Made by a program: the position numbers and the translations under genes
From: Terriglobia bacterium
GTDB lineage: Bacteria > Acidobacteriota > UBA6911
Reading direction: 5' to 3'
Assembly (NCBI GenBank): GCA_020072565.1
Contig: JAIQGI010000014.1
Coordinates: forward strand, 16,327-80,326
DNA: 64,000 bases
Notes under the pieces: model-generated
Told to the model about the DNA's origin: nothing
Database searches by the model: none
What the model saw: the letters and a program-made list of their open reading frames with translations, nothing else
Part shown: positions 21,532-41,755 of the stretch, piece by piece
Numbering within the stretch: the stretch's first letter is position 1
How the letters are laid out: each line of letters begins with the position of its first letter

Positions 21532-21607
21532 GGGCGCCTAGCTCAGCTGGTAGAGCACTGCGATCACACCGCAGGGGTCACAGGTTCGAGTCCTGTGGCG
21601 CCCACCA
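21532..21607 (+). tRNA. tRNA-Val (anticodon CAC)
   Basis: The sequence folds as a cloverleaf. It has a gggcgcc acceptor, a D-arm (gctcagctggtagagc), an anticodon loop atCACac, a T-arm (acagg-ttcgagt-cctgt), and a discriminator a followed by CCA. Confidence 0.85.
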
Positions 21608-22922: not shown

Positions 22923-25352
22923 TCAGCGTCCGCTCGGCCCATGGAGCTTGCCGAGCAGCGTCAAGGCTCTGCTGAGGTTAGCGCGCGCGTCGCTGAAGTC
23001 GGGCTTAATGCGGAGAGCCTCTCTGAAGTGCGTCGCAGCCTCCTCGAGCCGGCCCCGGCCTGCGAGCGCGACTCCCAGATTATTGTGGGCCTCCGCGGAT
23101 CCCGGCTCCGCTTTGAGCACCTCCCTGTACTGCAAGGCCGCTTCGTCGAGCCGTCCCAGCCCCTGCAGAACCTGTCCGAGGTTGTAGCGAGCCCCGGTGA
23201 AGTCCGGCTTGAGCCGCAAGGCCGCGTTATACTGTGTCACCGCTTCTTCATGGCGGCCCAACGCCTGCAGGGCATTGCCCAGGTTGAAGTAGACCCCGGC
23301 GATATCCGGCTTGAGCCGCAAAGCCTCGTTGTATTCCTTGATCGCATCGCTTTGACGGCCCAAAGCCAGCAGTGCGTTGCCCAGGTTGTTATGAGCCTCG
23401 GCGTAGTCCGGCTTGAGTCGCAAGGCCTCACGGTATCGCGTTACTGCCTCATTGACACGCCCCATGCGCTGCAACGCGCTGCCCAGGCAGTTGTAAGCCT
23501 CTGCAAAATCCGGCTTGAGCCGGACAGCCTCCATGTGTTGTGCCGCCGCCTCGTCGAGACGACCCATCTGCTGCAAGGCGCTGCCGAGATTGTTGTAGGC
23601 CGTGGCGTAATCGGGCTTGAGCTTCACAGCCTCCCTGAGGTGAATTACTGCCTCGTCAAGCCGGCCCAACCCCTGGAGAGCTGATCCCAGATTGCCCTGA
23701 GCCTCTGCGGAACCCGGCTCGTGTCGGAGCGCCTCCCGGTACTGCGCCGCCGCCTCTTCGAGCCTGCCCTGTCCCTGCAGGGCGTTGCCGAGGTTGTAAT
23801 AGGCCCCCCCAAAGTCCGGCTTGAGCCGCAGGGCTGCCTGGTATTGGGTTATGGCCTCGTCGAGCCTGCCGAGCCCCTGCAAGGCATCACCCAGGTTGTT
23901 ATGGGCCTCGGCGTAGTCCGGTTTCAGCCGCAAGGCCTCTTGATATTGTGCCAGCGCCTTCTCTACCTGTCCCCTTGCCTGCAGGGCGTTGCCCAGATTG
24001 TTGTAGGCCATCCAGCACGACGGATTGCGGCTGATCGTGACGCGATAGAGTGTTTCAGCGTTGGCGTACTGACGGCTCTGGCTCCAGGTGGGAAAAGCAA
24101 GCGCGCCTCCCAAAACAACTGTCATGACTGCCGCGGCCGGCTTGGGCTGGAAGCTCCATCGTCGGAGAAGGCTCGCCAGGCCGGCGGTAAACAGGGCTAT
24201 GATCCCTATGCTCGCCAGATACTGGAAGTGATCCGCTACGAACGAGTATCGGAACGGATACACGTTGAAAAAGCCCAGCGCCGGAAAAAGCGTCCCGCAG
24301 AAAAACAGCATCGCCGCCAGCGGCGCCCGGGAACGCATCCGCCACAGTGCCGCCAGCAACACGGCCACAACCAGCGGGTAGAGATATTGCCACCACACGC
24401 CCTGGCTGATCTGCCACCGCGGGTAAATGAAGGTCAGGTTCGCCGGCCAAAACAGCTTGCCGAGATAGAAACAGACCACCCGCCCGGCAATCAGGCCTCG
24501 TTCGATCAGCGTGAACTGGAATTCCGCACCCTGGGCTCCGATCAGCGTGCGCTCGACCAGGGCGGTAAGGAGGCCCCCGGCCGCGCCGATCACGAACCAC
24601 GGCATCAGCGGCGCCACGTCGCGGCGCCCGCTCAGATGCCCGCGTTGCCACCAGAAGATCACCAGCAGCGCCGCCGGTAAGGTGGCCGTGACGGTCTTGC
24701 TTAGCAAGGCCAGAACGAAGAGGGCCAGCGCCAGCGCATAAATGCGTTTTTGCCTGGTTTTGTCGAAGTGGAGATAGGCCAACACCGCAACCAGATAGAG
24801 CACGCCCGAGAGCGTGTTCTTCAGCTCGCTGATCCACGCCACGGACTCCACCTGAATGGGATGCAGGGCGAAGATCACCGCCGCCAGCCAAGCCCCCGGC
24901 ACGCCCAGGCGCCGCAGGATCACCGCCACCAGAAACGCCGCAAGCGCGTGCAGGATGATGTTGACCAGGTGGTAGCCCAGCATGGCGTCGCCCCAGAGTC
25001 TATGCAGGAGCCAGAAAGCCGAATGGGTGACCGGATAGTATTGCTGGGTCGCGCCGAGATCGAACCAGATGCGCCACAGACCTTCTGCGGGGCGCAAATC
25101 GCTGCGGGTGATATGGCGGTCGTCATCCCAGAGCATCCTGCCACGCCAGGCCGGATGATAGGCCGCCAAGGTCGCCAGCAGCAATCCCAGCAGCAATAGC
25201 CACGCTCCCCACCCGCGAGTTGCGCGACGGGCAGTAACTTGCTCCGCTGGCCGTTGCTGCTCCCTGCCCGGGCTGCCCGCCGACTGAAATGGCTTGCGTC
25301 TCTTGCCGGTCACGTTTGTCTTAATTTTCTGGAATCTCTTCGGATTGCTCAT
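22923..25352 (-). CDS. TMTC-like membrane protein: polytopic N-terminal domain plus C-terminal TPR array
   Basis: The 809-aa product has ~10 TM helices in the N-terminal half, typical of GT-C/PMT-like TMTC proteins. About 12 canonical TPRs follow (A..YNNLGNALQ..GRL.EA...Y..AL.L.PD). Confidence 0.75.
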   Translation of the reverse strand: MSNPKRFQKIKTNVTGKRRKPFQSAGSPGREQQRPAEQVTARRATRGWGAWLLLLGLLLATLAAYHPAWRGRMLWDDDRHITRSDLRPAEGLWRIWFDLGATQQYYPVTHSAFWLLHRLWGDAMLGYHLVNIILHALAAFLVAVILRRLGVPGAWLAAVIFALHPIQVESVAWISELKNTLSGVLYLVAVLAYLHFDKTRQKRIYALALALFVLALLSKTVTATLPAALLVIFWWQRGHLSGRRDVAPLMPWFVIGAAGGLLTALVERTLIGAQGAEFQFTLIERGLIAGRVVCFYLGKLFWPANLTFIYPRWQISQGVWWQYLYPLVVAVLLAALWRMRSRAPLAAMLFFCGTLFPALGFFNVYPFRYSFVADHFQYLASIGIIALFTAGLASLLRRWSFQPKPAAAVMTVVLGGALAFPTWSQSRQYANAETLYRVTISRNPSCWMAYNNLGNALQARGQVEKALAQYQEALRLKPDYAEAHNNLGDALQGLGRLDEAITQYQAALRLKPDFGGAYYNLGNALQGQGRLEEAAAQYREALRHEPGSAEAQGNLGSALQGLGRLDEAVIHLREAVKLKPDYATAYNNLGSALQQMGRLDEAAAQHMEAVRLKPDFAEAYNCLGSALQRMGRVNEAVTRYREALRLKPDYAEAHNNLGNALLALGRQSDAIKEYNEALRLKPDIAGVYFNLGNALQALGRHEEAVTQYNAALRLKPDFTGARYNLGQVLQGLGRLDEAALQYREVLKAEPGSAEAHNNLGVALAGRGRLEEAATHFREALRIKPDFSDARANLSRALTLLGKLHGPSGR

Positions 25353-25398: not shown

Positions 25399-26459
25399 CG
25401 AGAATTCCCTTTTAACGAATGCAGCCATTGAATCTACAACACTTGTGTTTCATAAGACACAACAAGCTCGCAAAAAAGTAGCGGAAACGCAACCCCCGCG
25501 CTACCCAAACTGACAGGATTCGCATAGAACACTAATTGCGATCGCAAGAGAAACGTTAGCGGCTGTGGCCTGCTTCCAGAGGGGATACAGTCTGTCGAGG
25601 CTGCCGCGATCTTGTATGTCGCCCGTGTCACGATTCACATCGCAGGGCGCGCCAAGCGCAGAGTTGGGCGACATCTCCACGGACGGGACCTCTGACCCGC
25701 TTCGCGGAATTTATATCTACGAATGCGTTATACAGCCTGTGACCGAGCTGAACTGTTGCCCGCTTGGTTTCTGAGCGCAAAGGCGTCCAGGCTGGCGTCC
25801 ACTTTTTGGCTGATGCGGTAGATCCGCTTGCCTTCATGGCAGAGTTGCGGAGAGCTGGGGTCGAGCAGACCGAGAACTTTGAATCTTGGGATTGAATAAA
25901 ACCCCCCGGATTGCTTTTGATAACAGGCCATTTCACCACCTACCATGAGCGCCGTCGAAGCCCGGGACGCGTCCACTCGGATGGTCAGTCGGCAGGCCAG
26001 ACAAGTTGCCCGTGCGGCCCAACTTCCAGAAAGTGAGCAAAAAGACTTAGGGATTTTACGTACGGACCTGAGGACCCGGGAGGAGGGCAGACGAGCGGAG
26101 GCTTGGCGCGGGCATTGATCGAATACGCGGCTTGTCCTCCCTATTCGGAATGACGGGGTGTCGGCGCCGGCGTGCGCCAATCGGGATCTGTCCCTGTCAG
26201 TTGCCTCAGAATCACCTTGGTTTCATTAATCAGCCGATTGCTCCGACCTTTTGCGGTTACGGCAATTAACATCACAAAGCGCCCCTCCTGTTGTGATTCA
26301 CGCCAACCCCAGCCGGGGAATCCTCTCTCGAGCAGTTTCTACTCAGGCTGGTGGGTAAGGGATAGGTTTATTCCTGCTTTTGAGCCGAGAAAATCCTGAG
26401 GTGGATTGGTAAAAGCTCCGGCGTGTTTCCTACGTGGTGGTGGGTCGAAAGAGGGAGTG

Positions 26460-27824
26460 ATGGGGATAGCATCAATTGAACAAATTGAATGCGAGCCTCG
26501 TATCTATATGCATCTCTGTGCCAGCGAGGTGTCTGTGTATCCAGCTGTCGAGTCGCCCCAAATGGATGCGAGATTTGAATGTGACCTTCGAAGCTTTGTC
26601 GGCAAATATACGGCAGTGTGGCTGAGCTCAGCCGTAGGGACTCCCACCTCAGCAATGACATATACCGCTTCGGCGCAGCGCAGAAACGAGCGCAATACAG
26701 ACCTCTTGATCGACTCCATGGAAAAGGAATTGCGGAACTACCCGTCACGGCCGCGGGAGCAGTCAGGCTGGCGTGAGCGCATTTTCGTAACACTGCGCCA
26801 GTTCGGCACGAAATCCTTCCGGTTTCCCGACAGCCATTTTGACGTTATCTTCTCTCCTGACTATTTTGCGGTTACCAGGGCTTTCGCCCGCCAGGCCCGC
26901 GCATTTGACGAGAGCATCGAGACCGACGCGCTCGCTCAAGCGCTTCGCAACGTCTGGGTCATGAACTGTTTGCAGATGTTCCTGGGCCGGCGGCCTTCGC
27001 TTTCGCCATCAGTTTTCGCTTACAGCATGCTCTATCCATACACCGATAACCACCTCGACCAGCCGAAACTGCCCTACGAGACGAAACGGATGGCGTGCCG
27101 GCGCTTGGGACTTCGTCTTTCAGGCCGGAATATCGAGCCTTGCGATGCGCATGAAGCTGCCGTTTTCCGGCTCGTTGAGATGATCGAAGGCGAATACCCG
27201 CGCGCTACTTCCCCGGAGGTCTACTCGAGTCTTCTGGCGATCCATGCCGGGCAGGTGAAAAGCCTGGGCCAGCAGCACACGCCCTTCGCTCCGGATGAAA
27301 CAACCCTCCTGCGGATCAGCGTTGAGAAAGGAGGCTCCTCTGTCCTCGCCGACGGCTGGCTTGTGGGGGGCGAAATGAGGAGAGCGGAGGCCGATTTCTT
27401 CTTTGGTTTCGGCGTCATGCTTCAGCTGCTCGACGACCTGCAGGACCTACCCGATGACCGCAATGCCGGGCACTGGACTTTATTCACGCGCACGGCCTCG
27501 GCGGAATGCCTGGACCGTCACACCAGCCAGCTCTGGCATTTCGTACACAACGTGCTCGATTCAAGGGGCTGCCTCGCCGATTCCCACGGTCTCGAACTGC
27601 GAGATCTGATCCGCCGCAACAGCACGATACTGTTGCTACGGGCCATGGCAGAAAGCGCAGGCTACTATTCCGCCGATTATGTGCACCACATGGAACGGTT
27701 TTCCCCTCTGAGTTTTGCCTTCCTGCGGGACCGTCGCGTAGCCATCGAAAAGAGATTCGCCAGAATCTGGCCACCGCTGGCGCGCCGGCGAAAGCTGCGC
27801 TCGATCTTCGATCTCCTGGGCTGA
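26460..27824 (+). CDS. hypothetical protein with Asp-rich LQLLDDLQDLPDD motif (possible divergent isoprenoid-synthase-like fold)
   Basis: The ~455-aa product, taken from the internal Met MGIASIEQ, is helical. GVMLQLLDDLQD resembles the second Asp-rich motif (FQxxDDxxD) of trans-prenyl synthases, and a degenerate TDNHLD lies ~125 aa upstream. No confident family assignment was made. Confidence 0.45.
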   Translation: MGIASIEQIECEPRIYMHLCASEVSVYPAVESPQMDARFECDLRSFVGKYTAVWLSSAVGTPTSAMTYTASAQRRNERNTDLLIDSMEKELRNYPSRPREQSGWRERIFVTLRQFGTKSFRFPDSHFDVIFSPDYFAVTRAFARQARAFDESIETDALAQALRNVWVMNCLQMFLGRRPSLSPSVFAYSMLYPYTDNHLDQPKLPYETKRMACRRLGLRLSGRNIEPCDAHEAAVFRLVEMIEGEYPRATSPEVYSSLLAIHAGQVKSLGQQHTPFAPDETTLLRISVEKGGSSVLADGWLVGGEMRRAEADFFFGFGVMLQLLDDLQDLPDDRNAGHWTLFTRTASAECLDRHTSQLWHFVHNVLDSRGCLADSHGLELRDLIRRNSTILLLRAMAESAGYYSADYVHHMERFSPLSFAFLRDRRVAIEKRFARIWPPLARRRKLRSIFDLLG

Positions 27825-27941: not shown

Positions 27942-28238
27942 TTACTTTATCGCATGCAATGCCTGACGGATTGCCTGAACATCGACCAACCGGCCTGAGC
28001 TGAACCGATAGAGGATGCTCGAAATTAATGTTTGATACGGAAGCCCCTCATCGGCGGCTCTTTTCCTCAGGTTTTCGAGCACAACCTCACTGAGCCGCAG
28101 GCTGATGGTTTTCGTCTTTCCTGCGGCCCGCAGAATTCGCTCTTTCTCGGCGGGCTCTACCGGCAAAAACTCTTCTAAAGAGTCTTCTATTTTTTGTTCA
28201 TACCTGTCAAGTTTTGGCCTACTTCGCTTTTTTGCCAT
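27942..28238 (-). CDS. brnA: BrnA-family antitoxin (RHH/CopG-like)
   Basis: A C-terminal segment (ISLRLSEVVLENLRKRAADEGLPYQTLISSILYRF) is typical of BrnA. The gene overlaps brnT by 20 nt, the classic toxin-first brnTA layout. Confidence 0.65.
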   Translation of the reverse strand: MAKKRSRPKLDRYEQKIEDSLEEFLPVEPAEKERILRAAGKTKTISLRLSEVVLENLRKRAADEGLPYQTLISSILYRFSSGRLVDVQAIRQALHAIK

Positions 28239-28485
28239 AACGCCTCTGAAGCTTGCGAGTGGGATAGATCGTTTTGAGGATCATGTTGCCGTCGGAATCC
28301 CAAAGAAACGGCACCGCATGAACCCGCTCGCCCAGGTTGACGACGAGTATTTTTTGATTCTTTCTCACGCGGTGCTCGAGAATATCAAGAACGCGCCCGG
28401 ACACAATTTCGACGATAACATCCTCAAAACGAACGTCCCTTGCGGCTGCCAGTTTTTCATTCTTGGCTTCGTCCCAGACGATCAC
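28219..28485 (-). CDS. brnT: BrnT-family toxin (DUF497)
   Basis: The 88-aa product begins MIVWDEAKNEKLAAARDVRFEDV..., a typical BrnT N-terminus. It has an apparent GTG start. Confidence 0.65.
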   Translation of the reverse strand: MIVWDEAKNEKLAAARDVRFEDVIVEIVSGRVLDILEHRVRKNQKILVVNLGERVHAVPFLWDSDGNMILKTIYPTRKLQRRYGKKAK

Positions 28486-28514: not shown

Positions 28515-28737
28515 TGTCAACGATGTTCGGGACGTATCGGCCCAGGCGATCCAACCACGAGTACGTTTGTTCGGGCTCTAGATGAAACCTATGCGCTGTG
28601 CACGCATGTATCGGGTTGCTATGCTAATTGAATCGGAGCACATACAGATGCACATCCAGGCAACAAATCGCCGGTCGGCCCACGGCCGTGCGTCGGATTT
28701 GACGCTGACTGGTGCCTGACGGTACTATGGCCGCGCG

Positions 28738-31700
28738 ATGGAGATATTGAGATACAGCGACCTGGATACGCGAGGGCTGGAGCAGTACGTGGAGCACGCC
28801 ACGGCGCTTCTTCGGGAAGGCGACTTCCGCGGCGCAGACGCCCGCAAAATGGTTGGTTCGCCGTTTTATAGGGCGCGGTTGAACGACAGGGACCGCCTGT
28901 TGTTCCGCTTCGTCGCTCACGGCGGGAAATCCCATCTCGTGCTGCTCGAGGTGATCCGGAATCATGCGTACGAAAAATCCCGCTTTCTCAACGGCGCCGT
29001 GGTTGATGAAAATAAATTGGTGCCGATCCCGGACGCCGCGCAGGTTCCGGCGGGCGATCTCCTGCCGTTGAGTTTCATCAATCCGAAAATCCAGCGCGTC
29101 CATGTGCTGGACAAGATCCTATCACTCGACGACTGGCAGGAGGCTGCGTATGTGCAGCGGCTGCCATTGATACTGATCGGTTCGGCGGGGAGCGGCAAGA
29201 CGGTACTGACGCTGGAGAAGATGAAGCAGATGTCCGGCGATTTGCTGTACGTCACGCATTCCGCCTACCTGGCGGAGAATGCCCGCAGGCTGTACTACGC
29301 CTCGGGCTACGAGAACGAGGCGCAGAACCTCAGCTTCCTGTCGTTTCGCGAGTTCGTGGAAACCATCCATGTGCCGCCGGGGAGCGTGGTGGATTTCCGG
29401 ATTTTCGCACGCTGGTTTGCCCGGCATCGGCAGGCTTCGGGCCTGCGCGACGCCCATCAGCTTTTCGAGGAATTCAACGGCGTGTTGACCGGTTCGCCGG
29501 TCACGACCCCGTATCTGTCGCGCGCGGACTACCTGGCCCTGGGCGTGCGCCGTTCCATTTTCACCGGCGACGAACGGCCGCTGGTGTACGACCTGTTCCT
29601 CAAATATCTCGACTTCCTCAAACAGGAGGAACTCGCGGACCTCAACCTGCTGTGTTTCCAGTATCACGAGGCCTGCCGCCCGTCCTATGACGCGATCGTC
29701 GTGGACGAAGTGCAGGATCTGACCAATGTTCAGCTCAGCCTGATTCTCAGGACGCTCCGCCATCCGGAAAAATTCATTCTTTGCGGCGATTCCAACCAGA
29801 TTGTTCATCCGAATTTTTTCTCGTGGGCCGCGCTCAAGACCCTGTTCTACGAGAACCGCCTGAAGACCAGCGGCGAGATCATACGGCTTCTCAATACCAA
29901 CTATCGTAACACGCCGGAAGTTACGCGCCTGGCCAATCGGCTGCTGCTCCTGAAGAATGCGCGCTTCGGATCGATCGATCGGGAAAGCCACTACCTGGTC
30001 CGGCCGATCTCGGAAAACCAGGGGCGCGTGGAATTCCTCGCCGATACGGACGCGGTGAAGCGCGAGTTCGACGCACGCACATCCCGTTCCACGCGCTTCG
30101 CCGTGCTCGTGATGCGCCCGGAGGACAAGGAAGCTGCCGGCCGCTGCTTCCGGACTCCGCTGCTTTTCTCCATCCAGGAAGCCAAGGGCCTCGAATACGA
30201 GAACATCATTCTCTTCAACTTCGTCTCAGGATCAGCTGCCGTGTTCAAGGAGGTCACCGAGGGAGTAGAACCCGCGGATTTGAAAGCGGACTTCTCGTAT
30301 GCCAGGGCGAAAGACAAGACCGACAAGTCGCTGGAAGGTTTCAAGTTTTATATCAACTCGCTCTACGTGGCCATGACCCGGGCCGTGCGGAATCTATACA
30401 TCATCGAGCAGGACACCGGGCACCGCCTTTTCCGTCTGCTGGGGCTCGATCTGCCCGGCCGCGAAGTGAAGCTCAAGACCCAGGATTCCTCGGCTGAGGA
30501 ATGGCAGGCCGAAGCGCACCGCCTCGAAATGCAGGGCAAACAAGAGCAGGCGGAAGCGATTCGGCGGCGCATTCTCGAGACGCAGCCTGTGCCTTGGCCC
30601 GTAATTACGCCGGATGGACTGGCGCAACTGGAGTTTGAGGCACTCAATCCGCAAGCCTACAACCGGCAGGCAAAACTGCTGCTGTTCGAGTATGCGGTGA
30701 TGTATTCGGTGCCCCGCCTCTTCCCGAAACTGGCGGCGTTGCAGTTCAACCCGGCGTTCCGTGCTGATTCCGAGCGGGCCGCGATCGAGAACAAGTACAG
30801 CCAGGACTGCCAGGGGGCACATCCGGTTCTGAATCAGAAGATCGAACGCTATGGTGTTGATTTTCGCAACCCGCTCAACCAGACGCCGCTCATGGTGGCC
30901 GCGCGACTGGGGCGGAAAGACCTGGTGCGCGACTTGGTTGCGCAGGGAGCCAACACCCAAGCCCGGGATAACTGGGGACGGGTGCCGCTGCAGATCGCGC
31001 TACGCCAGGCGTATAGCCGGCCCGAATACGCACGGTCGGCTATCGGCGAGGTCTACCCACTGCTTGCGCCGTCCGCGCTCAAGGTGCGGACGGGTGGGCG
31101 GCTCGTGAAACTCGACAGCCATGTCATGGAGTTCTTCCTCCTGCACTCCATGTTGGCGCTGTTTGAAGACGTGGTTCGACGCAAGGTGCAGGTTGCCTTT
31201 CCCGCCTTCGAGACGGGTGATTTTGTGTCCGCCCTGGAGCCGTTCCCCGTAAACGTCATCCCGGAGCATCGCCGCCGCCGTCCTTATTTGAGCGGTGTGC
31301 TCGCGCGCAACGAACTGCACCGCGGCGATCCCGGCAACCGCCAGCTCTTCCTGCGGGTCAGCCACGGGTTCTATGTACCGAATCCGGCGATGGATATCGA
31401 GATCGAGAACGCCTGGATCAATGTGTGCGACCTGCTGCACCTGGACACCATGGACGAAGGCGCCGAAAAGCGCCTGAAAGATCTCCTGGATGTGATGCGG
31501 CACGTCCGAAAACAGGGGCGGCTCGAAGACTCAAGCCGTCTGCGATTTTCTCCGTTTCATAGCACACCCGTTGCGCGTACCCTCGATAGTATTGCCCGCA
31601 AAGTGCGTGGTGAAGACGTGGCTTGGGAAGATGAATGGGAAGCGGCGGATCCACGATCCGGTGCTACGGCTCCCGACGTTCCGTTCCGGCAGGAACCGGC

Positions 31701-32928
31701 TGTAGAGACCGTTTCCGTAGCCACCCCCGCCGAATGGCAGCCGGAGCCGGCGCCATGCGTGCCCACCCAATATGAATTGCCCTTGGAGGATGCCGTGGCG
31801 GAACCGGCGGCAGTGGCAGCATCACCCGCCGAGCCGTCAGAACCCGAACCTATCGACGCTCCCGATGTGGTTCCCGTGGCGGCGGACCCGCTGACAGTCT
31901 CACCGTCGGAACCCGCGCGCCCCCGCGTGGCGGACGCACTGCCCCAACGCGTCGCGGCGATTCCCCAATCCCGTGTGACACCGCGCGGCGCGGAAGGCGC
32001 CGACATGCCTCCACCACTGCCTCCGCTCCTTGACATTGCCATGCCGGCGTACACGCAGCGCGAACAGCAGATGCTGCGGCGATTCGAGTTCCCGTCGTAC
32101 CCATTTCCCGAGGCGGACGCACGTCAGGTGGCCGCGAATCAAGATCGTTTTCGCCCCGCGCTTCTTGGCATAGTCCGAGGGATGCTCGATCCGCAAATAA
32201 AGCAGGAGGTAATTGCCGGCCGGCACAACCACATGGGGTATGCTGCCGCGATCTATATCCTCGCGGGCGCCCGGGATCAGGCGCTTTGGCCGCTATTGCT
32301 GAGGGTGACGATCGATCCGGACCTCGCCCCTTTCCACCTGCGCTACGAAAAATGGCTGGACTTGCCTCGCATCCTGGCCACCGTGGCACCGCAAGATCTC
32401 GCACCCATCATGCGTCTCGGCGCGTGGCGGCCGCTTCCGGGCGCTTCCCGTGGCTTGATCCTCAGAACCTTGGCCTTTCTTTTCTTCTGGAAGCGCACAT
32501 CGCGTGAGAGTGTAGTCCAAACCCTCCGGCAAACCTTCGATGTCGGGATTCCAGCATCGGATCTCGATCTCTGGGACGTCGTCCTGGATGTCTGCTGTAC
32601 CGTGCATCCGCACGAGATGATGGGCTATCTCCGGCGGCAGTTGTCTCCAGCTGTTTGTCGCGGACTTGAAGTGAGTCGCGCGGACCTCGAGAATATGAAC
32701 TTGGTGCCAATGGATAGGGTGCTAGCCGACTCACGCGCCGCCGCCGCCGGACCGATCCGGGGTTGGGAGGACTTTGCCGAGATCGGGCTTGAGGGCGGGC
32801 GCTCCCGTGAAGAGGAATGCGATATCAAAGAAGCCGAGCCTATCCACGCGGCACCGAAGACAGGCCGGAATGATCCATGTCCCTGTGGGAGCGGGCGCAA
32901 GTTCAAGAAATGTTGCGGCGCAGGGTAA
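28738..32928 (+). CDS. 1396-aa multidomain protein: RelE/ParE-like N-terminal segment, SF1A (UvrD-like) helicase, ankyrin repeats, Pro/Ala/Glu-rich linker, unknown C-terminal domain, SEC-C zinc motif
   Basis: Helicase motifs are Walker A GSAGSGKT (aa 148-155), motif II VVDEVQDL, motif III LCGDSNQIV, motif IV NYRNTPEV and motif VI VAMTRAVRNLYII. Ankyrin repeats appear at NQTPLMVAARLGRKDLVRDLVAQGANTQARDNWGRVPLQIAL. The last residues are GRNDPCPCGSGRKFKKCCG, a SecA-type SEC-C metal-binding motif. The N-terminal segment FYRARLNDRDRLLFRFVAHGGKSHLVLLEVIRNHAYE is patterned like a RelE/ParE core. Confidence 0.8.
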   Translation: MEILRYSDLDTRGLEQYVEHATALLREGDFRGADARKMVGSPFYRARLNDRDRLLFRFVAHGGKSHLVLLEVIRNHAYEKSRFLNGAVVDENKLVPIPDAAQVPAGDLLPLSFINPKIQRVHVLDKILSLDDWQEAAYVQRLPLILIGSAGSGKTVLTLEKMKQMSGDLLYVTHSAYLAENARRLYYASGYENEAQNLSFLSFREFVETIHVPPGSVVDFRIFARWFARHRQASGLRDAHQLFEEFNGVLTGSPVTTPYLSRADYLALGVRRSIFTGDERPLVYDLFLKYLDFLKQEELADLNLLCFQYHEACRPSYDAIVVDEVQDLTNVQLSLILRTLRHPEKFILCGDSNQIVHPNFFSWAALKTLFYENRLKTSGEIIRLLNTNYRNTPEVTRLANRLLLLKNARFGSIDRESHYLVRPISENQGRVEFLADTDAVKREFDARTSRSTRFAVLVMRPEDKEAAGRCFRTPLLFSIQEAKGLEYENIILFNFVSGSAAVFKEVTEGVEPADLKADFSYARAKDKTDKSLEGFKFYINSLYVAMTRAVRNLYIIEQDTGHRLFRLLGLDLPGREVKLKTQDSSAEEWQAEAHRLEMQGKQEQAEAIRRRILETQPVPWPVITPDGLAQLEFEALNPQAYNRQAKLLLFEYAVMYSVPRLFPKLAALQFNPAFRADSERAAIENKYSQDCQGAHPVLNQKIERYGVDFRNPLNQTPLMVAARLGRKDLVRDLVAQGANTQARDNWGRVPLQIALRQAYSRPEYARSAIGEVYPLLAPSALKVRTGGRLVKLDSHVMEFFLLHSMLALFEDVVRRKVQVAFPAFETGDFVSALEPFPVNVIPEHRRRRPYLSGVLARNELHRGDPGNRQLFLRVSHGFYVPNPAMDIEIENAWINVCDLLHLDTMDEGAEKRLKDLLDVMRHVRKQGRLEDSSRLRFSPFHSTPVARTLDSIARKVRGEDVAWEDEWEAADPRSGATAPDVPFRQEPAVETVSVATPAEWQPEPAPCVPTQYELPLEDAVAEPAAVAASPAEPSEPEPIDAPDVVPVAADPLTVSPSEPARPRVADALPQRVAAIPQSRVTPRGAEGADMPPPLPPLLDIAMPAYTQREQQMLRRFEFPSYPFPEADARQVAANQDRFRPALLGIVRGMLDPQIKQEVIAGRHNHMGYAAAIYILAGARDQALWPLLLRVTIDPDLAPFHLRYEKWLDLPRILATVAPQDLAPIMRLGAWRPLPGASRGLILRTLAFLFFWKRTSRESVVQTLRQTFDVGIPASDLDLWDVVLDVCCTVHPHEMMGYLRRQLSPAVCRGLEVSRADLENMNLVPMDRVLADSRAAAAGPIRGWEDFAEIGLEGGRSREEECDIKEAEPIHAAPKTGRNDPCPCGSGRKFKKCCGAG

Positions 32929-33340
32929 TGTCTATGGCCACATTGGTCAGCCGAGCCGGCCCAGCAGTGACACAGCCCCCAATTGACGAAAAATATGCCC
33001 TCAGTTCTGGTCGTCCACCTCTGAAGAAATTCCCCAAAGGTCCCAACCTCGGCGAGCCGTCAAGCTGATTTGCTGGCTGCGTCAATCCGTCAATCGCCAC
33101 CTGGTTATGTACGATATCCCCACCACTCGCCCCCGACATCCACTTCTATCCGAAATGATGCTGTAAGCGCTTTTCATTCTCATAATTACCGACCATATCT
33201 TCATGACTTCCTCCAGTGCTACTGCACCATGATGGGAACATTTTGAAGCGGCGGGCGTCTAAGATTGTCAGACAATAAAGAGGGCTTTGTCGTCCTCAGT
33301 CATGAATGCAGTTCTTGATTGAAACCGAAAACGGATCAAT

Positions 33341-34288
33341 ATGCGATACCGAATCTTCGTGGTGATCGTTTTCTGCTTCTGCATTTTGGCACTGATGTTG
33401 GCGCGATACGACTCATCTCTCAGAGCTGCGTCAACAGGAGTCTCCGGTCCTGCCATCCAGCGCCGCAACTACTCACCGAACACAATCCGCTACTATTTGA
33501 GTACGGTCGAGGATTTCGCCAGACACTTTAAGAAATCTCCGGACAAACTTGGTCCGGATCACTTGCGTTCGTACCACGCCTATCTTCTCAGAGACCGCAA
33601 ATTGGCGGTCGAATCTGTTGTCGGACGTGTAGCCGCACTGCGTTTCTTTTTTATCCGCACCCTAAAGCGTCCAGAGTTCCGAGACGATTTGCCGTATCCC
33701 AAACGGCACAGGAAGCATCCGATCGTTCTCAGCCCTGAGGAAGTGGCAAAGGTGATCAATGCCGCTCGAAGTCTGATGCACCGCGCTCGGTTGATGGTGC
33801 TTTACGGTACAGGCCTGCGCCGGGAGGAAGTTTCCCTGTTAAGAGTTGACAATATCGATAGTTCCCGAATGACGATCCATGTCCAATTCGGCAAGGGAGG
33901 CAAGCAACGGTTTGTTCCGCTCAGCCCCGTGCTGCTGAACACGCTGCGCGAGTACTGGCGTTGGAAAAAGCCCAAAGAATATCTGTTTCCCGGCACACGG
34001 ATCCGGAACGGCAAGATCATGCCGATCTCGGATAAGACTGTCTATCATGCCTGTGTCACAGCTGCGCATCGCGCTGGCATCCGGAAGAAAGTCACCCCGC
34101 ATCTGCTGCGTCACACCTTTGCTACCCATATGCTCGAAAACGGAACGGATATCAGGAGAATCCAGGAGATTCTGGGCCATGGAGACCTGGCAACCACCGC
34201 CAGATATCTGCACATATCGCAAAAACATCTGCAAAGTATCGTGAATCCGCTCGACTCGCTTCCGCTTTCGCCTGTGGACAAAAGCTGA
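33341..34288 (+). CDS. tyrosine recombinase (phage integrase family) of the IS91-family element
   Basis: The catalytic C-terminus is present (HLLRHTFATHMLENGTDIRRIQEILGHGDLATTARYLHI; R..HxxR..Y). The first ~40 aa do not align to copy B, and the conserved LRQ.. segment appears in another frame, so a 5' frameshift or alternative start is possible. Confidence 0.6.
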   Translation: MRYRIFVVIVFCFCILALMLARYDSSLRAASTGVSGPAIQRRNYSPNTIRYYLSTVEDFARHFKKSPDKLGPDHLRSYHAYLLRDRKLAVESVVGRVAALRFFFIRTLKRPEFRDDLPYPKRHRKHPIVLSPEEVAKVINAARSLMHRARLMVLYGTGLRREEVSLLRVDNIDSSRMTIHVQFGKGGKQRFVPLSPVLLNTLREYWRWKKPKEYLFPGTRIRNGKIMPISDKTVYHACVTAAHRAGIRKKVTPHLLRHTFATHMLENGTDIRRIQEILGHGDLATTARYLHISQKHLQSIVNPLDSLPLSPVDKS

Positions 34289-34303
34289 ACACACTGCGAC
34301 GCC

Positions 34304-35509
34304 ATGACGAAACCCCCATTTGAGGTTGCCGACATTGTCCGGGTTCAAGGCCATCGATTCCTCGAGAAACATGGCTCCGGCATGGATTTCGAGCAGGTGA
34401 AAGCGTTCCGCGCCATCAAGGCTTGCCGCACGGCAGCGCTCGGGGGCCACATTGATTATTGTCCCGGTTGCGGTAGCTACGAGAAGAACTCCTTCAATAG
34501 CTGCCGCAATCGCAATTGCCCAAAATGCCAGGCGGGATTGCGTCAGCGCTGGATTGCAGAACGGGAACGCGAAGTCCTGGGCGTTCCCTATTTTCATGTA
34601 GTCTTTTCCGTGCCGCACGAACTCAATGTCTTGGTGCGGGATAATCATCGACTGTTTTACAGTCTTCTGTTTTCGGCAAGTTCGAAGGCCGCCGTGGAGC
34701 TTGCGGCCGACCCCAAGTGGCTCGGCGCCCAGATTGGCATTCTCAGCACCTTGCACACTTGGGGCCAGAACCTGACGACGCATCCCGACATCCACTGCGT
34801 GATTCCGCAAGGCGGACTTGCGCCGGACCACAAAAGCTGGATCCATCCGCGCTACCGATTCTTTCTTCCCGTCAAGGTCTTGTCCAAGGTGTTCCGCGGC
34901 AAATTCCTTCATGCTTTGAGGCGCCTCTACCGCAAGAAGAAATTGCGATTGGTCGGCCCCGCAGCCTGTCTGGAGGATCCGAAGTGTTTTGCGGCACTGA
35001 TCCGACGGTTATACAAAAAGTCATGGGTCGTGTACGCCAAGCCGGCATTCGGCGGCCCCGTGCAGGTGATCCGGGATCTCGGACGCTATACCCACCGCGT
35101 CGCGATTTCCAATCACCGCATTGTAAACTTTGACGGCGAAAAGGTGACGTTTCTCTGGAAAGACTATGCCCATGAAAGCAGGCAAGGGGCGATGACGTTG
35201 GAGGCGACCGAGTTTTTGCGCCGGTTCTTTTCGCATGTACTGCCGAAAGGATTCGTTCGCATTCGGCAGTTCGGGTTTCTGGCGAATCGTTTCCGTGTCA
35301 AACGCGTTACGCTTTGCCCCGAGCTGCTTGGCGATCCCGTGGAGCCCAGCCAGACCCTGGAACCGGAACCTGATCCCGAGCTTCCAGAACCAACTGCCTG
35401 GAGATGCCCGCGGTGCGGCACCAGAGTCATCAGGGTGCGGATATTCACGGCCGGAGATTGGTCTTCCCGAGGAGGCTTTACTGATGGACAAATGTGTTCA
35501 GCTTATTGA
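34304..35509 (+). CDS. IS91-family transposase (HUH Y2 rolling-circle)
   Basis: An N-terminal zinc motif (CPGCG...CRNRNCPKCQ) is followed by the HUH motif HTWGQNLTTHPDIHCVIPQGG and the Tyr motif [15 protein letters not shown]. Confidence 0.75.
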   Translation: MTKPPFEVADIVRVQGHRFLEKHGSGMDFEQVKAFRAIKACRTAALGGHIDYCPGCGSYEKNSFNSCRNRNCPKCQAGLRQRWIAEREREVLGVPYFHVVFSVPHELNVLVRDNHRLFYSLLFSASSKAAVELAADPKWLGAQIGILSTLHTWGQNLTTHPDIHCVIPQGGLAPDHKSWIHPRYRFFLPVKVLSKVFRGKFLHALRRLYRKKKLRLVGPAACLEDPKCFAALIRRLYKKSWVVYAKPAFGGPVQVIRDLGRYTHRVAISNHRIVNFDGEKVTFLWKDYAHESRQGAMTLEATEFLRRFFSHVLPKGFVRIRQFGFLANRFRVKRVTLCPELLGDPVEPSQTLEPEPDPELPEPTAWRCPRCGTRVIRVRIFTAGDWSSRGGFTDGQMCSAY

Positions 35510-36142: not shown

Positions 36143-38047
36143 TCAGAGGTGCGGAAGCCGCTCCCGGGTCCAGGTCTGAATCAGTTCCGCCAGTGGCCCA
36201 AAGATGCGAACCGCCCCCATAAAGAAGAGTTGGGGGTCGCGATCCTGGTAGGCTTTCTCCAGCCAGTCGATGACCCGGTCTCGTTCTCCGAGGCCTGCGT
36301 ACATGCAGATTAGGCTTTTTGCCGGCACATATCCCCGCTCGAGTCTCGCCAGCAACCCGTGGAGCATAGAGGTCGCGGTGTCCAGGTGGCCCGCCCTGGC
36401 GTGCGCATGTCCCAGATATCCAATGGAAAGCGCATCCGGGGAAATCGCAGCGGCCTTTTCGAAAGCCTGAACCGCCGAGTCAAATCGTGAGTGCATCAGT
36501 TCCGACCACCCCAGGACGTACCAGGCCTGGAGAGCGTCCGGGAACAGATCCAGCGTGGTGCGTGCCTGTTGTCGGGCCCACTCGTACTCCTCCACAAACA
36601 GATGGATCCAAGCCGCATCCGCGTTGACGTCGAGAGATAGCGGATCCAAATCCAAGGCAAGCTTCGCCTCCGCAATAGCTTTGGCACGATCTCCCGCGAC
36701 TATCGCCAGAAACACGGCATAGTTTACGTGAGCGCCTTCATCGCTCGGATTCAAGTCAATGGCGCGGAGGGTCTCCGCCTTGCAGGTGGCCAAGTCCCAA
36801 TCGTGCAGCCAACTGACCCACCCCAGAACCCAATGAGCAACGCTCAGGGCATCATCCAGAGCGATGGCCTTCAGGGACGCCTTCTGGGCCCGGGGATAGG
36901 CCTCGGGGCCGGGCAGGTGTCCCCAGAAGCCCAGGAGAGAGTAGCATAGGGCCATGTGAGCATACGCCGGTGCGTGGGTGGGATCCTTTTCCAGCGCCAG
37001 GTGGAGACATTGCAGGCCTTTGTGAAACCCGTCCAGTGAGCGCTGGCCCAGGTAATGGCGGGCCTTGAGATAGGCTACTTGTGCTTCCGGGTTCACGGGG
37101 CGCTGGCGAGAGAGCCGCCCGACCTCGGCCGTGCTCAAGGTCACCTGCGCCGCCTCAGCAATGTCCCGCGCGACCTGCCCCTCCATAGTGAGGATGTCAC
37201 CCATCCGGCATGAGTAGGCTTTGGACCAGAGGTGCTGCTCGGGCATGGTTTGCACGAGCTGGGCAGTAATGCGGATGCTGTCCCCATCCACGAGCACGCA
37301 TCCCTCGACGACAAGGTCTGCCTTTAAATCACAGGCGATTTCCGCAAGCGTCTTGCGCGTGCCCTTGAGATGGAGCACGGATTGGCGGGAAATCACGCGC
37401 AACGTGCTCACGTTTCCCAGCTCCGTGGTCAGCGCGTCGGCCACAGCGTCGCCGAAGAAATCCTGTTCCGGATGACGGTTCAGATTCTCGAACGGCAGCA
37501 CTGCGAGCCTGGGTGGAACGATGAGCACCTGCTCGACCGGCGCGATGAAGCGATAGCCACGGTGATGCAGCGTCTCGATATACCTGGGTTTGCGGGCACC
37601 ATCCCGAAGCGCATCCCTCAACCGATTCACCGCGCTGTTCAGGCTGTTGTCGAAGTCGACGGAAACGCCGTCCGGCCAGAGCCGCTGCCTCAAATCCTGG
37701 CGCGTCACAAGTTCGTCGGGATGCTCCAGCAGTGCCACGAGCGCCTCGAAAGATTTGCCCTGGACTTGGATCCGCAGGCCGTTTTTACGCAGCTCACCCG
37801 CAGGCACATCGACCTTGTAGGGGCCGAAGGTAAACCGTTTGACACGGGTTTTTGCCTGACTCACAGTGGATTCACCATAGCGCCCACCGCAATCCGGAGT
37901 CAAGCCTCCTGAAATCATCGTCTTGCGTCGTGAGAAACATTCAAGAAGGAAACAAGAATCACAGCCAAGGATTGTGGCGCAAAATCGGTCTCGGTAAGAC
38001 GTTCCATATGAAGCGCAGAATGCCGGATACGGCCCCAAGCGGCACAT
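36143..38047 (-). CDS. winged-helix (OmpR/CadC-type trans_reg_C) DNA-binding regulator with C-terminal TPR domain
   Basis: The N-terminal segment FGPYKVDVPAGELRKNGLRIQVQGKSFEALVALLEHPDELVTRQDLRQRLWPDGVSVDFDNSLNSAVNRLRDAL...YIETLHHRGYRFIA is a canonical OmpR C-terminal wHTH. It is followed by ~400 aa of TPR-like helices. The true start is probably internal (MISGG.. or later). Confidence 0.7.
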   Translation of the reverse strand: MCRLGPYPAFCASYGTSYRDRFCATILGCDSCFLLECFSRRKTMISGGLTPDCGGRYGESTVSQAKTRVKRFTFGPYKVDVPAGELRKNGLRIQVQGKSFEALVALLEHPDELVTRQDLRQRLWPDGVSVDFDNSLNSAVNRLRDALRDGARKPRYIETLHHRGYRFIAPVEQVLIVPPRLAVLPFENLNRHPEQDFFGDAVADALTTELGNVSTLRVISRQSVLHLKGTRKTLAEIACDLKADLVVEGCVLVDGDSIRITAQLVQTMPEQHLWSKAYSCRMGDILTMEGQVARDIAEAAQVTLSTAEVGRLSRQRPVNPEAQVAYLKARHYLGQRSLDGFHKGLQCLHLALEKDPTHAPAYAHMALCYSLLGFWGHLPGPEAYPRAQKASLKAIALDDALSVAHWVLGWVSWLHDWDLATCKAETLRAIDLNPSDEGAHVNYAVFLAIVAGDRAKAIAEAKLALDLDPLSLDVNADAAWIHLFVEEYEWARQQARTTLDLFPDALQAWYVLGWSELMHSRFDSAVQAFEKAAAISPDALSIGYLGHAHARAGHLDTATSMLHGLLARLERGYVPAKSLICMYAGLGERDRVIDWLEKAYQDRDPQLFFMGAVRIFGPLAELIQTWTRERLPHL

Positions 38048-39700: not shown

Positions 39701-40954
39701 TCAAGAGCTGTCAGCGGCATATTCCATCCTATTTAGCACGGACCGGATCTGTGCGGCGGTCAGACGTTCGATGATGCACATGGTCCCGTGACAGCGAGGG
39801 CACTTGGCAACCTGCGGTTCATCGGGTTCGGCCGTTGGCGCCGGGTGATGGAGTAAGGTTCGGCAAATCGGCAGCAGTTCTCCGCACCGGCGATTGGCAA
39901 GCCAGCCAAAATAGCGAATGCGTGGCAGCCCCTTCGGTAGCACATGCTGCAGGAAGCGGCGCAAAAACTTCTCGTGGGTGAGTGTCTTGGTGCGTTGCAC
40001 GCCGTTATGGGCGTAATCCTTCCATTGAAAGGTCACATGGGACTCATCAACGGAGGCGATTCGATGGTTGGATATGGCAACACGATGGGTGTAGCGAGCC
40101 AGATACTGAAGCACGTGCTCGGGGCCGCCGAAGGGCGGCTTGGAGTAGACGACCCAGTCCTGTTCCGACAGAGGTTTCAAAAACGCGGCAAACGCTTCCC
40201 CATTGGCTAACGGCTCGCACTTTCCGTAAAAGGACAGTTTGTCTGCCAGATGCGCCTGCCTCAGTCCATCCACAAACTTGTCGCGAAAGGTACGGCTGAG
40301 AACCTTGACCGGCACGAAGTAACGGGGATGCGACGAGATCCAGCGGCTGTGATCCGGGGACAGACCGCCACCGGGCACCACGCAATGAATGTGCGGATGC
40401 CTCTGTAGAGTCTGCCCCCAGGTATGCAAAATGCAGAGAAAGCCGATTTCCATACCTCGACGCTTATGATCGGAAGCCACTTCCAGGAGAGTAGCCGCGG
40501 TAGCCTGGAAGAAAAGCGAAAGCAGGAGTTTCTTGTTTTGCCAGATCAACGGGACCAGGCGGTGCGGGATGCTGAAAACGATGTCGTAGTACCCGACGGG
40601 CAGCAACTCTTGTTGCCGTTTGCGGAGCCACTTCTCGCGTGCATTGACTTGACACTTCGGGCAGTGGCGATTGCGACAGGAAAAGAACGAGATAGCCTGA
40701 TACCCGCAACTGGCACATCGATCACGATGCCCACCAAGAGCGGCGGTGCGGCAGCTCACGATGGCATGGAGCACCTTGAGCTGTCCCCACAGCTCAGCGT
40801 CTCCCCGAGGCGCTCCCACAGTTTGCTGCCCGCCATGCGAATGACATCGGCCACCTCCCAGAGGGGCCGAGCCATTAGTGATTGTCCTCCGGTGGGTAGT
40901 GCAGTTCGGAATGGCTGCGAAGCGTGATCTGCTCAAGAGGATTGATAACCGCAC
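39701..40954 (-). CDS. IS91-family transposase (copy B); N-terminus possibly frameshifted
   Basis: The HUH and Tyr motifs are conserved ([21 protein letters not shown]; [14 protein letters not shown]). Hand translation shows the expected N-terminus [25 protein letters not shown] in a different frame starting at 40875, so the gene may be a pseudogene or carry a sequencing indel. Confidence 0.5.
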
Positions 40955-41032
40955 GAAGATGACGCTGCGACAGATGCAAATAGATCGCGGTTTCTTTCAG
41001 GCAGGAATGCCCCAGGAGAAGCTGAATGGTTC

Positions 41033-41755
41033 TCAGGTCGGCTCCCGCTTCGCAAAGGTGTGTCTCAGCGTGTGCGGACCGATGGTCTTAGTCAAGCCCG
41101 CGCGTTTTGCCGCACCACGAACGGCGTGCCAGACGGTTTTGTCCGACATCGGCTTCTCAACACCGAGACGTCCTGCGGTGCTGGGGAACAGATAGATCTT
41201 CGGCCGCTTCGAACGATAGTACTCACGCAGCGCATCGAGAAGTTTGGGAGACATCGGCAGAGCGCGATCGCGTGAACCTTTGCCCTGCCGGATATGGATG
41301 ATCATGCGCTGACTGTCAATGTCAGCCAGTTTGACAAGCGGAGCCTCGGCCCGTCGTAAACCCGTCGAGTACAAAAGCATCAAAATGGTGCGGTATTTGA
41401 GATTCGGCGCAGCTTCGATCAATCGCGTCACCTCTTCATGACTCAGCACCACCGGCAGCTTTTTAGGAACCTTGGGGAAAGGCAAATCGTCCATGTCAAG
41501 ATCGCGACGCCTGAGGGTCTTCTTGTATAGGAAACGCAATGCCGAGAGTCTTATTTTAACCGTGCTCGGCTCAAGCTTCTTCTCCTTGAGCAGGTAGAGT
41601 TGAAACCGGCGCACCTCTTCGGTGCCGAGTTTATCCGGGGACTTGTCGAAATAATCGGCAAACTGCTTGACGGCCAGAATGTATCCACGAAACGTTTCAG
41701 GTGAGTAATTGCGGCGCTGGAGCTCGTCCAGCATTCTCTGACGTAATGGGGTCAT
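41033..41755 (-). pseudogene. tyrosine recombinase of IS91-family copy B, C-terminally truncated by frameshift
   Basis: The ORF stops after HTLRHTFA. The continuation [31 protein letters not shown]... (catalytic Tyr region) is readable in another frame between 40955 and 41032. Confidence 0.45.

Follow-up and report, generated by a model that had tools for sequence, protein, structure and literature searches.

A mobile, generically annotated helicase family with a RelE/YoeB-like fold at its N-terminus and, in one subclade, a DUF1186-SEC-C tail

Several bacterial defence proteins, including Gabija GajB, Nhi, Hachiman HamB and Mokosh, combine a superfamily-1/2 helicase with a nuclease-type effector and have an accessory, mobile distribution. 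In Cami1 (CARF-RelE), a RelE domain is regulated in cis by a fused sensor. Here we analyze a gene whose product, by analogy of its parts, would work most like these two kinds of protein. It lies at 28738..32928 on the plus strand of a 64,000-nucleotide stretch of DNA from a Terriglobia bacterium (GenBank assembly GCA_020072565.1, contig JAIQGI010000014.1, positions 16,327 to 80,326; hereafter the window). Its 1396-amino-acid (aa) product begins with a RelE/YoeB-like domain, continues with a compact superfamily-1A (SF1A) helicase, ankyrin repeats and a C-terminal core domain, and ends in a DUF1186-SEC-C tail. We favor, tentatively and at slightly less than an even chance, the reading that it is a single-chain, horizontally mobile conflict protein whose RelE-like RNase, of predicted activity, is under the control of its helicase motor.

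The comparison with these systems also shows where the protein differs. Relative to Gabija and Hachiman, it has no GajA- or HamA-type partner, and its RelE-like effector, ankyrin and C-terminal modules are extra. PADLOC models for GajB, AbiO and Nhi match its helicase motifs over 80-100 aa with 26-44 bits; the best GajB model reaches 43.8 bits over aa 477-558, and no GajA OLD-family nuclease recurs in the flanks of its homologs. Cami1 structures (PDB 8phb and 8phj) are among the structural matches, but the sensor of the window family is an SF1A helicase with ankyrin and C-terminal modules, not a cyclic-oligoadenylate-binding CARF domain. Pfam and NCBIfam found no CARF domain in the window protein, and no cas genes occur among 132 immediate neighbors of the family. 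Unlike the type II toxins RelE, YoeB, YafQ and HigB, the window protein has no detectable profile similarity to such toxins and no cognate antitoxin gene, and its domain is not free-standing (best 150 matches). It is not a type II toxin-antitoxin (TA) toxin in the operon sense, and it is neither a member of a PADLOC system nor a UvrD, Rep or PcrA ortholog.

The open reading frame (ORF) begins with ATG. It is not a chance ORF, since it has 4434 homologous protein clusters and the identical sequence is already deposited in public collections. The motifs on which the original prediction was built could all be located in the translation: FYRARLNDRDRLLFRFVAHGGKSHLVLLEVIRNHAYE (aa 43-79), GSAGSGKT (148-155), DEVQD (323-327), GDSNQ (350-354), NYRNTP (388-393), VAMTRA (544-549) and CPCGSGRKFKKCCG (1381-1394). 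In the full-length protein, Pfam identifies AAA_19/UvrD-helicase (138-356), UvrD_C (477-556), Ank/Ank_2 (697-757), DUF1186 and SEC-C (1377-1394). No segment is hydrophobic enough for a membrane helix. The gene, all on the plus strand, is laid out as follows.

28738..32928, plus strand: the whole gene, encoding the RelE-like domain, SF1A helicase, helical hairpin, ankyrin-type repeats, C-terminal domain, Pro/Ala-rich linker, DUF1186 and SEC-C.
28738..29067, plus strand: N-terminal RelE/YoeB-like domain (aa 1-110), with a folded core at about aa 1-80 made of a strand, a helix and a three-stranded antiparallel sheet.
29110..30417, plus strand: compact SF1A (UvrD/Rep-like) helicase core (aa ~125-560), with Walker A GSAGSGKT at 29179-29202 and motif II DEVQD at 29704-29718, then GDSNQ, NYRNTP and VAMTRA.
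30490..30582, plus strand: helical hairpin (aa 585-615; EEWQ..A..LE.QGKQEQA..IR..IL), strongly conserved, joining the helicase to the repeat domain, with helices at 586-598 and 602-612 in the core model.
30595..31065, plus strand: all-helical ankyrin-type repeat domain (aa ~620-776), with canonical Ank repeats at aa 697-757 (30826-31008).
31066..31512, plus strand: conserved C-terminal core domain of the family (aa 777-925), in which beta-hairpins mix with helices; confidently modeled, with invariant RRxRxY and NRxLFxR..G.Y..NP motifs.
31513..32037, plus strand: Pro/Ala/Val/Glu-rich linker (aa 926-1100), recognized by composition and poor conservation (alignment occupancy falls beyond aa ~925).
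32038..32727, plus strand: DUF1186 domain (PF06685), with the Pfam match at aa 1111-1320 (37-41 bits, cutoff 22).
32866..32925, plus strand: extreme C-terminal SEC-C motif CPCGSGRKFKKCCG, a metal-binding motif of the SecA/YecA type, found by Pfam SEC-C, with NCBIfam YecA/YchJ-type models matching the last ~30 aa.

The N-terminal domain was modeled with AlphaFold2 (aa 1-110, from family alignment A1) at a mean predicted local distance difference test score (pLDDT) of 93.1. The model has the alpha/beta fold characteristic of the RelE/ParE superfamily, in which one or more N-terminal helices pack on a three- to four-stranded antiparallel sheet, and the same strand-helix-three-strand pattern recurs in an independent model of the 930-aa core. 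The top 12 Foldseek matches are YoeB/ParE, YafQ and YoeB structures (probability 0.90-1.0), and the structural comparison figures are 8.3 for YoeB, 7.5 for archaeal RelE, 7.1 for YafQ, 7.0 for HigB, 6.3 for ParE and 5.5 for Cami1, a CRISPR-associated protein with a RelE domain. The domain might instead be a ParE-like gyrase or topoisomerase poison that, coupled to a DNA helicase, targets the topology or replication of either invading or host DNA; we consider this quite improbable.

Ten residues of the domain are invariant across the family, from Terriglobia to E. coli and Shigella (K37, Y44, R45, R53, E71, H76, Y78, S81, R82 and F83). The catalytic residues of the YoeB RNase are Glu46 (the general base), Arg65, His83 and Tyr84. 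In the model, R53 appears to open strand 3 as YoeB R65 does, and H76 and Y78 appear to follow the last strand like YoeB H83 and Y84. The lone YoeB sequence alignment obtained also pairs R53 with R65, but this alignment is non-significant. The main rival to our reading is that the RelE-like domain is a catalytically dead adaptor for nucleic acid, ribosome, RNA polymerase or another protein, carried on an accessory DNA or transcription motor like Rep or HelD; the motor would, for instance, remove protein roadblocks or recycle polymerases, and the ankyrin and C-terminal modules would recruit partners. Such an adaptor, which we judge unlikely, would be in keeping with a HelD-like score in structural comparison, with the strong conservation and with the placement of many homologs among housekeeping genes. 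However, the invariant R45, R53, H76, Y78 and R82 form a basic/His/Tyr cluster resembling that of active RelE/YoeB enzymes, the NCBIfam HelD and HelR models score 13-16 bits, and the gene is accessory, being present in 2% of E. coli genomes and located on plasmids and islands. E. coli genomes all keep uvrD, rep and helD.

An exhaustive profile search with the N-terminal domain (1.84 billion representative proteins, yielding 766 clusters) returned no free-standing or differently fused copy among the best 150 clusters inspected: the domain always forms the N-terminus of a helicase protein of ~900-1400 aa, and the short matches represent fragments of genes or frameshifted predictions.

The core as a whole was modeled over aa 1-930 from an 83-sequence alignment (A2), with a pLDDT of 86.7 and a predicted template modeling score (pTM) of 0.85, which indicates that, as modeled, the core is a compact multi-domain body. 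The motor has the features of an SF1A UvrD/Rep-like helicase (Walker A, DExQD, GDxxQ, NYR and TRA motifs and a RecA-like 1A/2A fold), and the SF1A motifs are all invariant across the family alignment. The compact SF1A helicase of the original prediction was confirmed, and housekeeping orthology is excluded because the NCBIfam equivalog models score far below their cutoffs: 12-23 bits against 419-1144 for UvrD, Rep, PcrA and HelD (pcrA, 23.1 against 911; uvrD, 12.7 against 1144; rep, 16.4 against 951; HelD, 16.0 against 419) and 26.3 against 696 for recB. Compared with UvrD, Rep, PcrA and HelD, the window core is shorter and 14-19% identical, the RelE-like and ankyrin modules are extra, and the gene is accessory. 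The ankyrin repeats are likewise real: Pfam Ank scores 23.2-25.8 bits (cutoff 21.1), Ank_2 also matches, and a sequence search of the PDB returned designed ankyrin repeat proteins (DARPins) and ankyrins with E down to 4.7e-21. Helix pairs span aa 625-776 in the core model. For the C-terminal domain (aa 777-925), Pfam, PDB-profile and PHROG searches gave no match, and it has no known relative.

No partner gene accompanies the family. ORF clustering across 88 loci shows local synteny only, with no conserved partner or antitoxin. The 132 immediate neighbors fall into 138 Pfam families of at most 4 members each, so that no partner recurs; they are housekeeping genes mixed with a few Fic, PIN, PtuB and transposase genes. 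No cognate antitoxin adjoins the gene in these 88 loci or among these neighbors. When the window is compared with two relatives (91% and 88% DNA identity), the gene alone is common to them (~28655-33044) and the flanks are unrelated. The placement of the gene in accessory DNA, as originally proposed, thus holds: copies have unrelated flanks and often sit beside TA or abortive infection (Abi) modules.

The family is widespread. A homolog search of 5.8 billion proteins gave the 4434 clusters mentioned above, of which the best 120 were examined. About 20 of these are full-length like the window protein; the rest are "core-only" proteins of ~930-1000 aa with 53-61% identity, from Verrucomicrobiota, Kiritimatiellota, Lentisphaerota, Methylomirabilota, Marinimicrobia and others. 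In a scan of one genome per species, the ~930-aa core was present in at least 571 species at 43-60% identity. Cultured carriers include Mucilaginibacter, Parapedobacter, Methylomonas, Methylomicrobium, Methylocucumis and Thiothrix, and the closest genome among the matches listed is a Terriglobia metagenome-assembled genome (MAG) with 96% identity. In that MAG the copy (L011, 4000-8284) is split into several ORFs, through either real decay or long-read frameshift errors. A phage origin was rejected, because the gene is almost absent from phages: a search of 50,697 phage genomes gave nothing, and one of 2.9 million viral contigs gave 2 matches.

The core is also found on 137 plasmids (tblastn), 101 of which are Shigella plasmid records; other plasmid carriers are Methylosinus trichosporium OB3b pOB3b_02 and a Deinococcus plasmid. 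Of 5426 complete E. coli genomes, 115 carry the gene, mostly on the chromosome within CP4-like integrative islands. An intact E. coli homolog, WP_000686652.1, has 949 aa, and the Shigella pINV copy is WP_164925050.1. Truncated and frameshifted E. coli copies occur; the annotation of one (L094, 10049-12890) records a frameshift and an internal stop, and in several genomes just the last ~18% of the gene is left. Shigella dysenteriae plasmid pSD1_197 (NC_007607.1, 82697-85609) carries an intact 970-aa homolog, divergent from shf-capU-virK-lpxM and near ospG and ipaH9.8. It is annotated merely as "UvrD-helicase domain-containing protein", and its cluster includes hundreds of S. sonnei, S. flexneri and S. 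dysenteriae contigs. The proximity to shf-capU-virK-lpxM and ospG, the frequency of ankyrin repeats in secreted effectors and weak NCBIfam matches to the Legionella AnkI and AnkG models could be taken to mean that the protein is a secreted virulence effector. This is highly improbable, however: AnkI and AnkG score 12-21 bits where the cutoffs are 500-550, the family lives mostly in free-living soil, sediment and aquatic bacteria (Terriglobia, methanotrophs, Thiothrix, Bacteroidota), and the intact ATP-driven helicase core argues for an intracellular function on nucleic acid.

As judged by sequence comparison, the DUF1186-SEC-C tail is limited to one subclade and the core is widespread. In a neighbor-joining tree of the core, the proteins with DUF1186 and SEC-C (19 of the 120) form one contiguous clade; three SEC-C-only variants adjoin it and a fourth lies elsewhere. 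The region originally described as a ~300-aa domain without recognizable motifs is in fact a known Pfam family of unknown function, because DUF1186 (PF06685) scores above cutoff there (37 bits at aa 1111-1320, cutoff 22), with E 3e-9 and model positions 5-213 of 247 covered. The C-terminal SEC-C domain was correctly recognized: it scores 38.9-41 bits (cutoff 20.4) and has the CxC(x8)CC/CH motif. The Pro/Ala/Glu-rich linker at about aa 975-1080 also agrees with the composition of that segment (21% Pro, 20% Ala, 13% Val and 10% Glu). A tail-only search showed that DUF1186 plus SEC-C is a common free-standing protein of ~290-310 aa, 25-32% identical to the window tail and with the two-domain layout of the last ~300 aa of the window protein. 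Because this free-standing form exists, the window protein is a fusion of two otherwise independent genes; in contrast to the free-standing proteins, the window copy is joined to the helicase core by a Pro/Ala-rich linker of ~170 aa. No free-standing DUF1186 gene lies close to core-only homologs. A SEC-C-bearing ORF upstream of the homolog in locus L021 proved to be SecA and was rejected.

The window protein has a CxCxSxxK..CC motif of the same type as the SecA and YecA(AscA) metal-binding domains. According to two preprints, the SecA/YecA(AscA)-type domain binds SecB and ribosomes (bioRxiv 10.1101/613315; 10.1101/2020.07.21.215244). The original prediction had called SEC-C an anchor; this is not supported, the published role being SecB and ribosome binding and not membrane anchoring.

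Ribosome binding by this domain also counts for another explanation, in which the protein is a cellular RNA or ribosome quality-control factor and not a conflict system; its helicase and RelE-like nuclease would clear stalled ribosome-mRNA complexes and, in some lineages, the SEC-C tail would tether it to ribosomes. In five loci the homolog lies directly downstream of the aspartyl-tRNA synthetase gene (AspRS) and GatA-GatB in the same orientation (L002, 1606-7843; L007-L010, 2162-6917), and in L002 it also lies downstream of the gene for a CCA-adding enzyme, again in the same orientation. The adjacency could reflect chance synteny of related genomes or a link with tRNA and translation. RelE-fold enzymes act in the ribosomal A site. 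Together with the high sequence conservation, this background and the synteny in one lineage are consistent with a quality-control role, which we nevertheless regard as improbable. The tRNA-gene synteny is restricted to related contigs, the motor is of the SF1A DNA-helicase type and not of the Upf1-like RNA-helicase type, and the distribution is patchy, low-frequency and mobile, as seen in the 115 of 5426 E. coli genomes, the plasmids and the unrelated flanks of near-identical copies.

The mechanism we infer for a conflict protein of this kind has four steps. (i) The RelE-like domain would serve as effector: like RelE and YoeB, it would probably be a ribosome-associated endoribonuclease that cleaves mRNA. 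(ii) It would be restrained in cis by the rest of the polypeptide, with no separate antitoxin. (iii) The helicase motor would respond to a trigger made of nucleic acid, for instance foreign or damaged DNA, and a protein ligand would be sensed by the ankyrin/C-terminal module; either sensor would free the RNase through an ATP-driven rearrangement. (iv) The resulting translation arrest would lead to growth arrest or abortive infection. In the window subclade, the SecA-type metal-binding motif of the fused tail may dock the enzyme on ribosomes or SecB. Counting for this reading are the RelE/YoeB fold with its invariant residues, the intact motor, the lack of a recurring partner gene, the mobile and accessory distribution, the conflict-type neighbors in the tail subclade, a ZorD/DpdE-like helicase gene directly downstream in four loci, the published SecB and ribosome binding of the SEC-C domain, and the precedent of Cami1. 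The most specific form of this proposal is possible but on balance doubtful: an antitoxin-less, RelE/YoeB-type, ribosome-dependent mRNA endonuclease, gated by a fused SF1A helicase and ankyrin sensor so that foreign or aberrant nucleic acid leads to A-site cleavage, with the tail parking the window-subclade enzyme on ribosomes.

A number of observations weigh against a helicase-controlled RNase. Several concern the N-terminal domain. Pfam finds no family at E<=1 in the N-terminal 140 aa, a 34-sequence family profile compared with all PDB sequences gives no toxin or other relevant match, and hhalign of the family with E. coli YoeB and RelE is not significant. Since sequence profiles are silent, the RelE/ParE assignment holds at the level of the fold only, and catalysis is putative; of the original assignment of the N-terminus to RelE/ParE, the fold is thus borne out by the AlphaFold2 model and Foldseek, and detection by sequence profiles (Pfam, PDB profile and hhalign) is not. 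For the same reason the catalytic-residue equivalence rests on strand register only, and no counterpart of the YoeB general base Glu46 was identified among the N-terminal residues. Other points concern the whole protein and its setting. SF1A helicases are DNA enzymes, and we know of no precedent for a direct link between one and a ribosome-dependent RNase. Homologs from different phyla are 43-60% identical, an exceptionally large value for a defense gene. Many homologs lie amid housekeeping genes (AspRS-GatA-GatB, folD and lptF), and a minority of immediate neighbors match PADLOC models. PADLOC has no full-length model for the 1396-aa protein, only segments of 80-100 aa match, and no system is recognized beyond generic helicase, Ank and SEC-C segments; the defense role suggested at the outset is a reading of the context. 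Finally, a literature search, in part weakened by its terms, returned no description of the architecture.

Every database name for the family is generic ("hypothetical", "AAA family ATPase", "UvrD-helicase domain-containing", "ankyrin repeat domain-containing" and "DUF1186 domain-containing"). The claim of a new architecture accordingly needs dividing: the core belongs to a large, generically annotated family found in many phyla, including E. coli and Shigella, and only the DUF1186-SEC-C tail is particular to one subclade. Joined in one chain, a RelE-like domain, an SF1A helicase, ankyrin repeats and the C-terminal domain appear to be undescribed, whether or not that tail follows.

The genes that border the studied gene in the window are the following.

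27942-28238, minus strand: BrnA/CopG-type antitoxin gene (Pfam), divergent upstream and outside the studied gene.
28219-28485, minus strand: weak BrnT-like ORF, divergent upstream (18.5 bits, under the Pfam cutoff).
33341-35509 (plus strand), 36143-38047, 39701-41755 and 42310-44055 (minus strand): downstream structure made of two pairs of an integrase (tyrosine recombinase) with an IS91-family (Y2_Tnp/Zn_Tnp_IS91) transposase, together with two regulator genes described below.

The upstream neighbors had been named as a divergent BrnT/BrnA pair; BrnA stands, and BrnT does not stand as a Pfam call. They form a divergent pair of their own, and in close relatives unrelated modules take their place. 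A relative with 87% protein identity (L001) has a BrnT/BrnA pair upstream (7181-7706, minus strand) plus a reverse transcriptase, but the toxins of the two loci share 31% identity over 36 aa and the antitoxins do not align; BrnTA was therefore rejected as a conserved partner. Within the tail clade, other neighbor modules are AbiEi/AbiEii (L095, 2922-4381) and a HicB-like gene (L099, 6869-7123). Differing TA and Abi modules beside near-identical copies suggest either a hotspot or a functional affinity. In L001, the relative with 88% DNA identity, there is also a 152-bp fragment (6274-6424) that is 87.5% identical to window 30302-30453, an internal part of the helicase, ~1.6 kb upstream of the intact copy; it may be what is left of an earlier copy, or a trace of recombination.

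Downstream, the insertion sequences predicted nearby are present as IS91-family transposases. The two integrase/IS91 pairs are diverged and inverted relative to each other, share a 79-nt segment that is 71% complementary, and flank a regulator gene with Trans_reg_C and tetratricopeptide repeat (TPR) domains; a second, paralogous Trans_reg_C-TPR gene lies just beyond them. The arrangement suggests a composite mobile structure rather than a phage satellite. An adjoining phage satellite had been proposed, but no satellite feature was found in the window and each integrase is paired with an IS91-type transposase. Between tRNA-Val (21532-21607) and the studied region, an 809-aa protein made almost wholly of TPR repeats is encoded at 22923-25352 (minus strand), and with the two Trans_reg_C-TPR genes it makes this stretch unusually TPR-rich. 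An ORF of 472 aa with a TTG start (26406-27824, plus strand) has no Pfam or PHROG match. Its neighborhood had been singled out for a conservation check; no homolog exists in any of ~100 related loci, and the ORF was rejected as a partner for that reason.

Two further arrangements were seen in other loci. In four loci from Gammaproteobacteria and the Planctomycetes-Verrucomicrobia-Chlamydiae (PVC) group (L049, 3516-7270; L056, 10714-14773; L057, 3892-7328; L071, 11017-14423), the homolog is followed directly by two genes in the same orientation. The first encodes an SNF2 helicase of ~890-930 aa with DUF3670, which PADLOC matches to ZorD/DpdE over the SNF2 half (E ~1e-131), and the second a protein of 250-350 aa. 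Together with the homolog they may form a three-gene variant of the system. In both E. coli chromosomal islands examined (L093, 11422-11955; L094, 9401-9937), a ~177-aa hypothetical protein without a Pfam or PADLOC match is encoded ~100 nt upstream in the same orientation. It is probably an island component and not a partner, because neither the Shigella plasmid nor other phyla have it.

The window result separates a widespread core from a lineage-specific DUF1186-SEC-C tail and corrects the genomic context to IS91/integrase elements. The family is large (thousands of protein clusters in at least 571 species) and wholly uncharacterized, and its toxin-like fold is invisible to standard profile annotation. 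Because intact copies are present in E. coli and on the Shigella virulence plasmid (pINV), the hypothesis can be tested directly by standard genetics and phage panels. If our reading is correct, a RelE-type toxin controlled by a helicase motor in the same chain, and not by an antitoxin, would represent a new mode of control and a new type of effector for helicase-based bacterial immune and conflict systems. With family members present in E. coli islands and on pINV, the gated-endonuclease version, if true, would also assign a function to a long-ignored gene of pINV.

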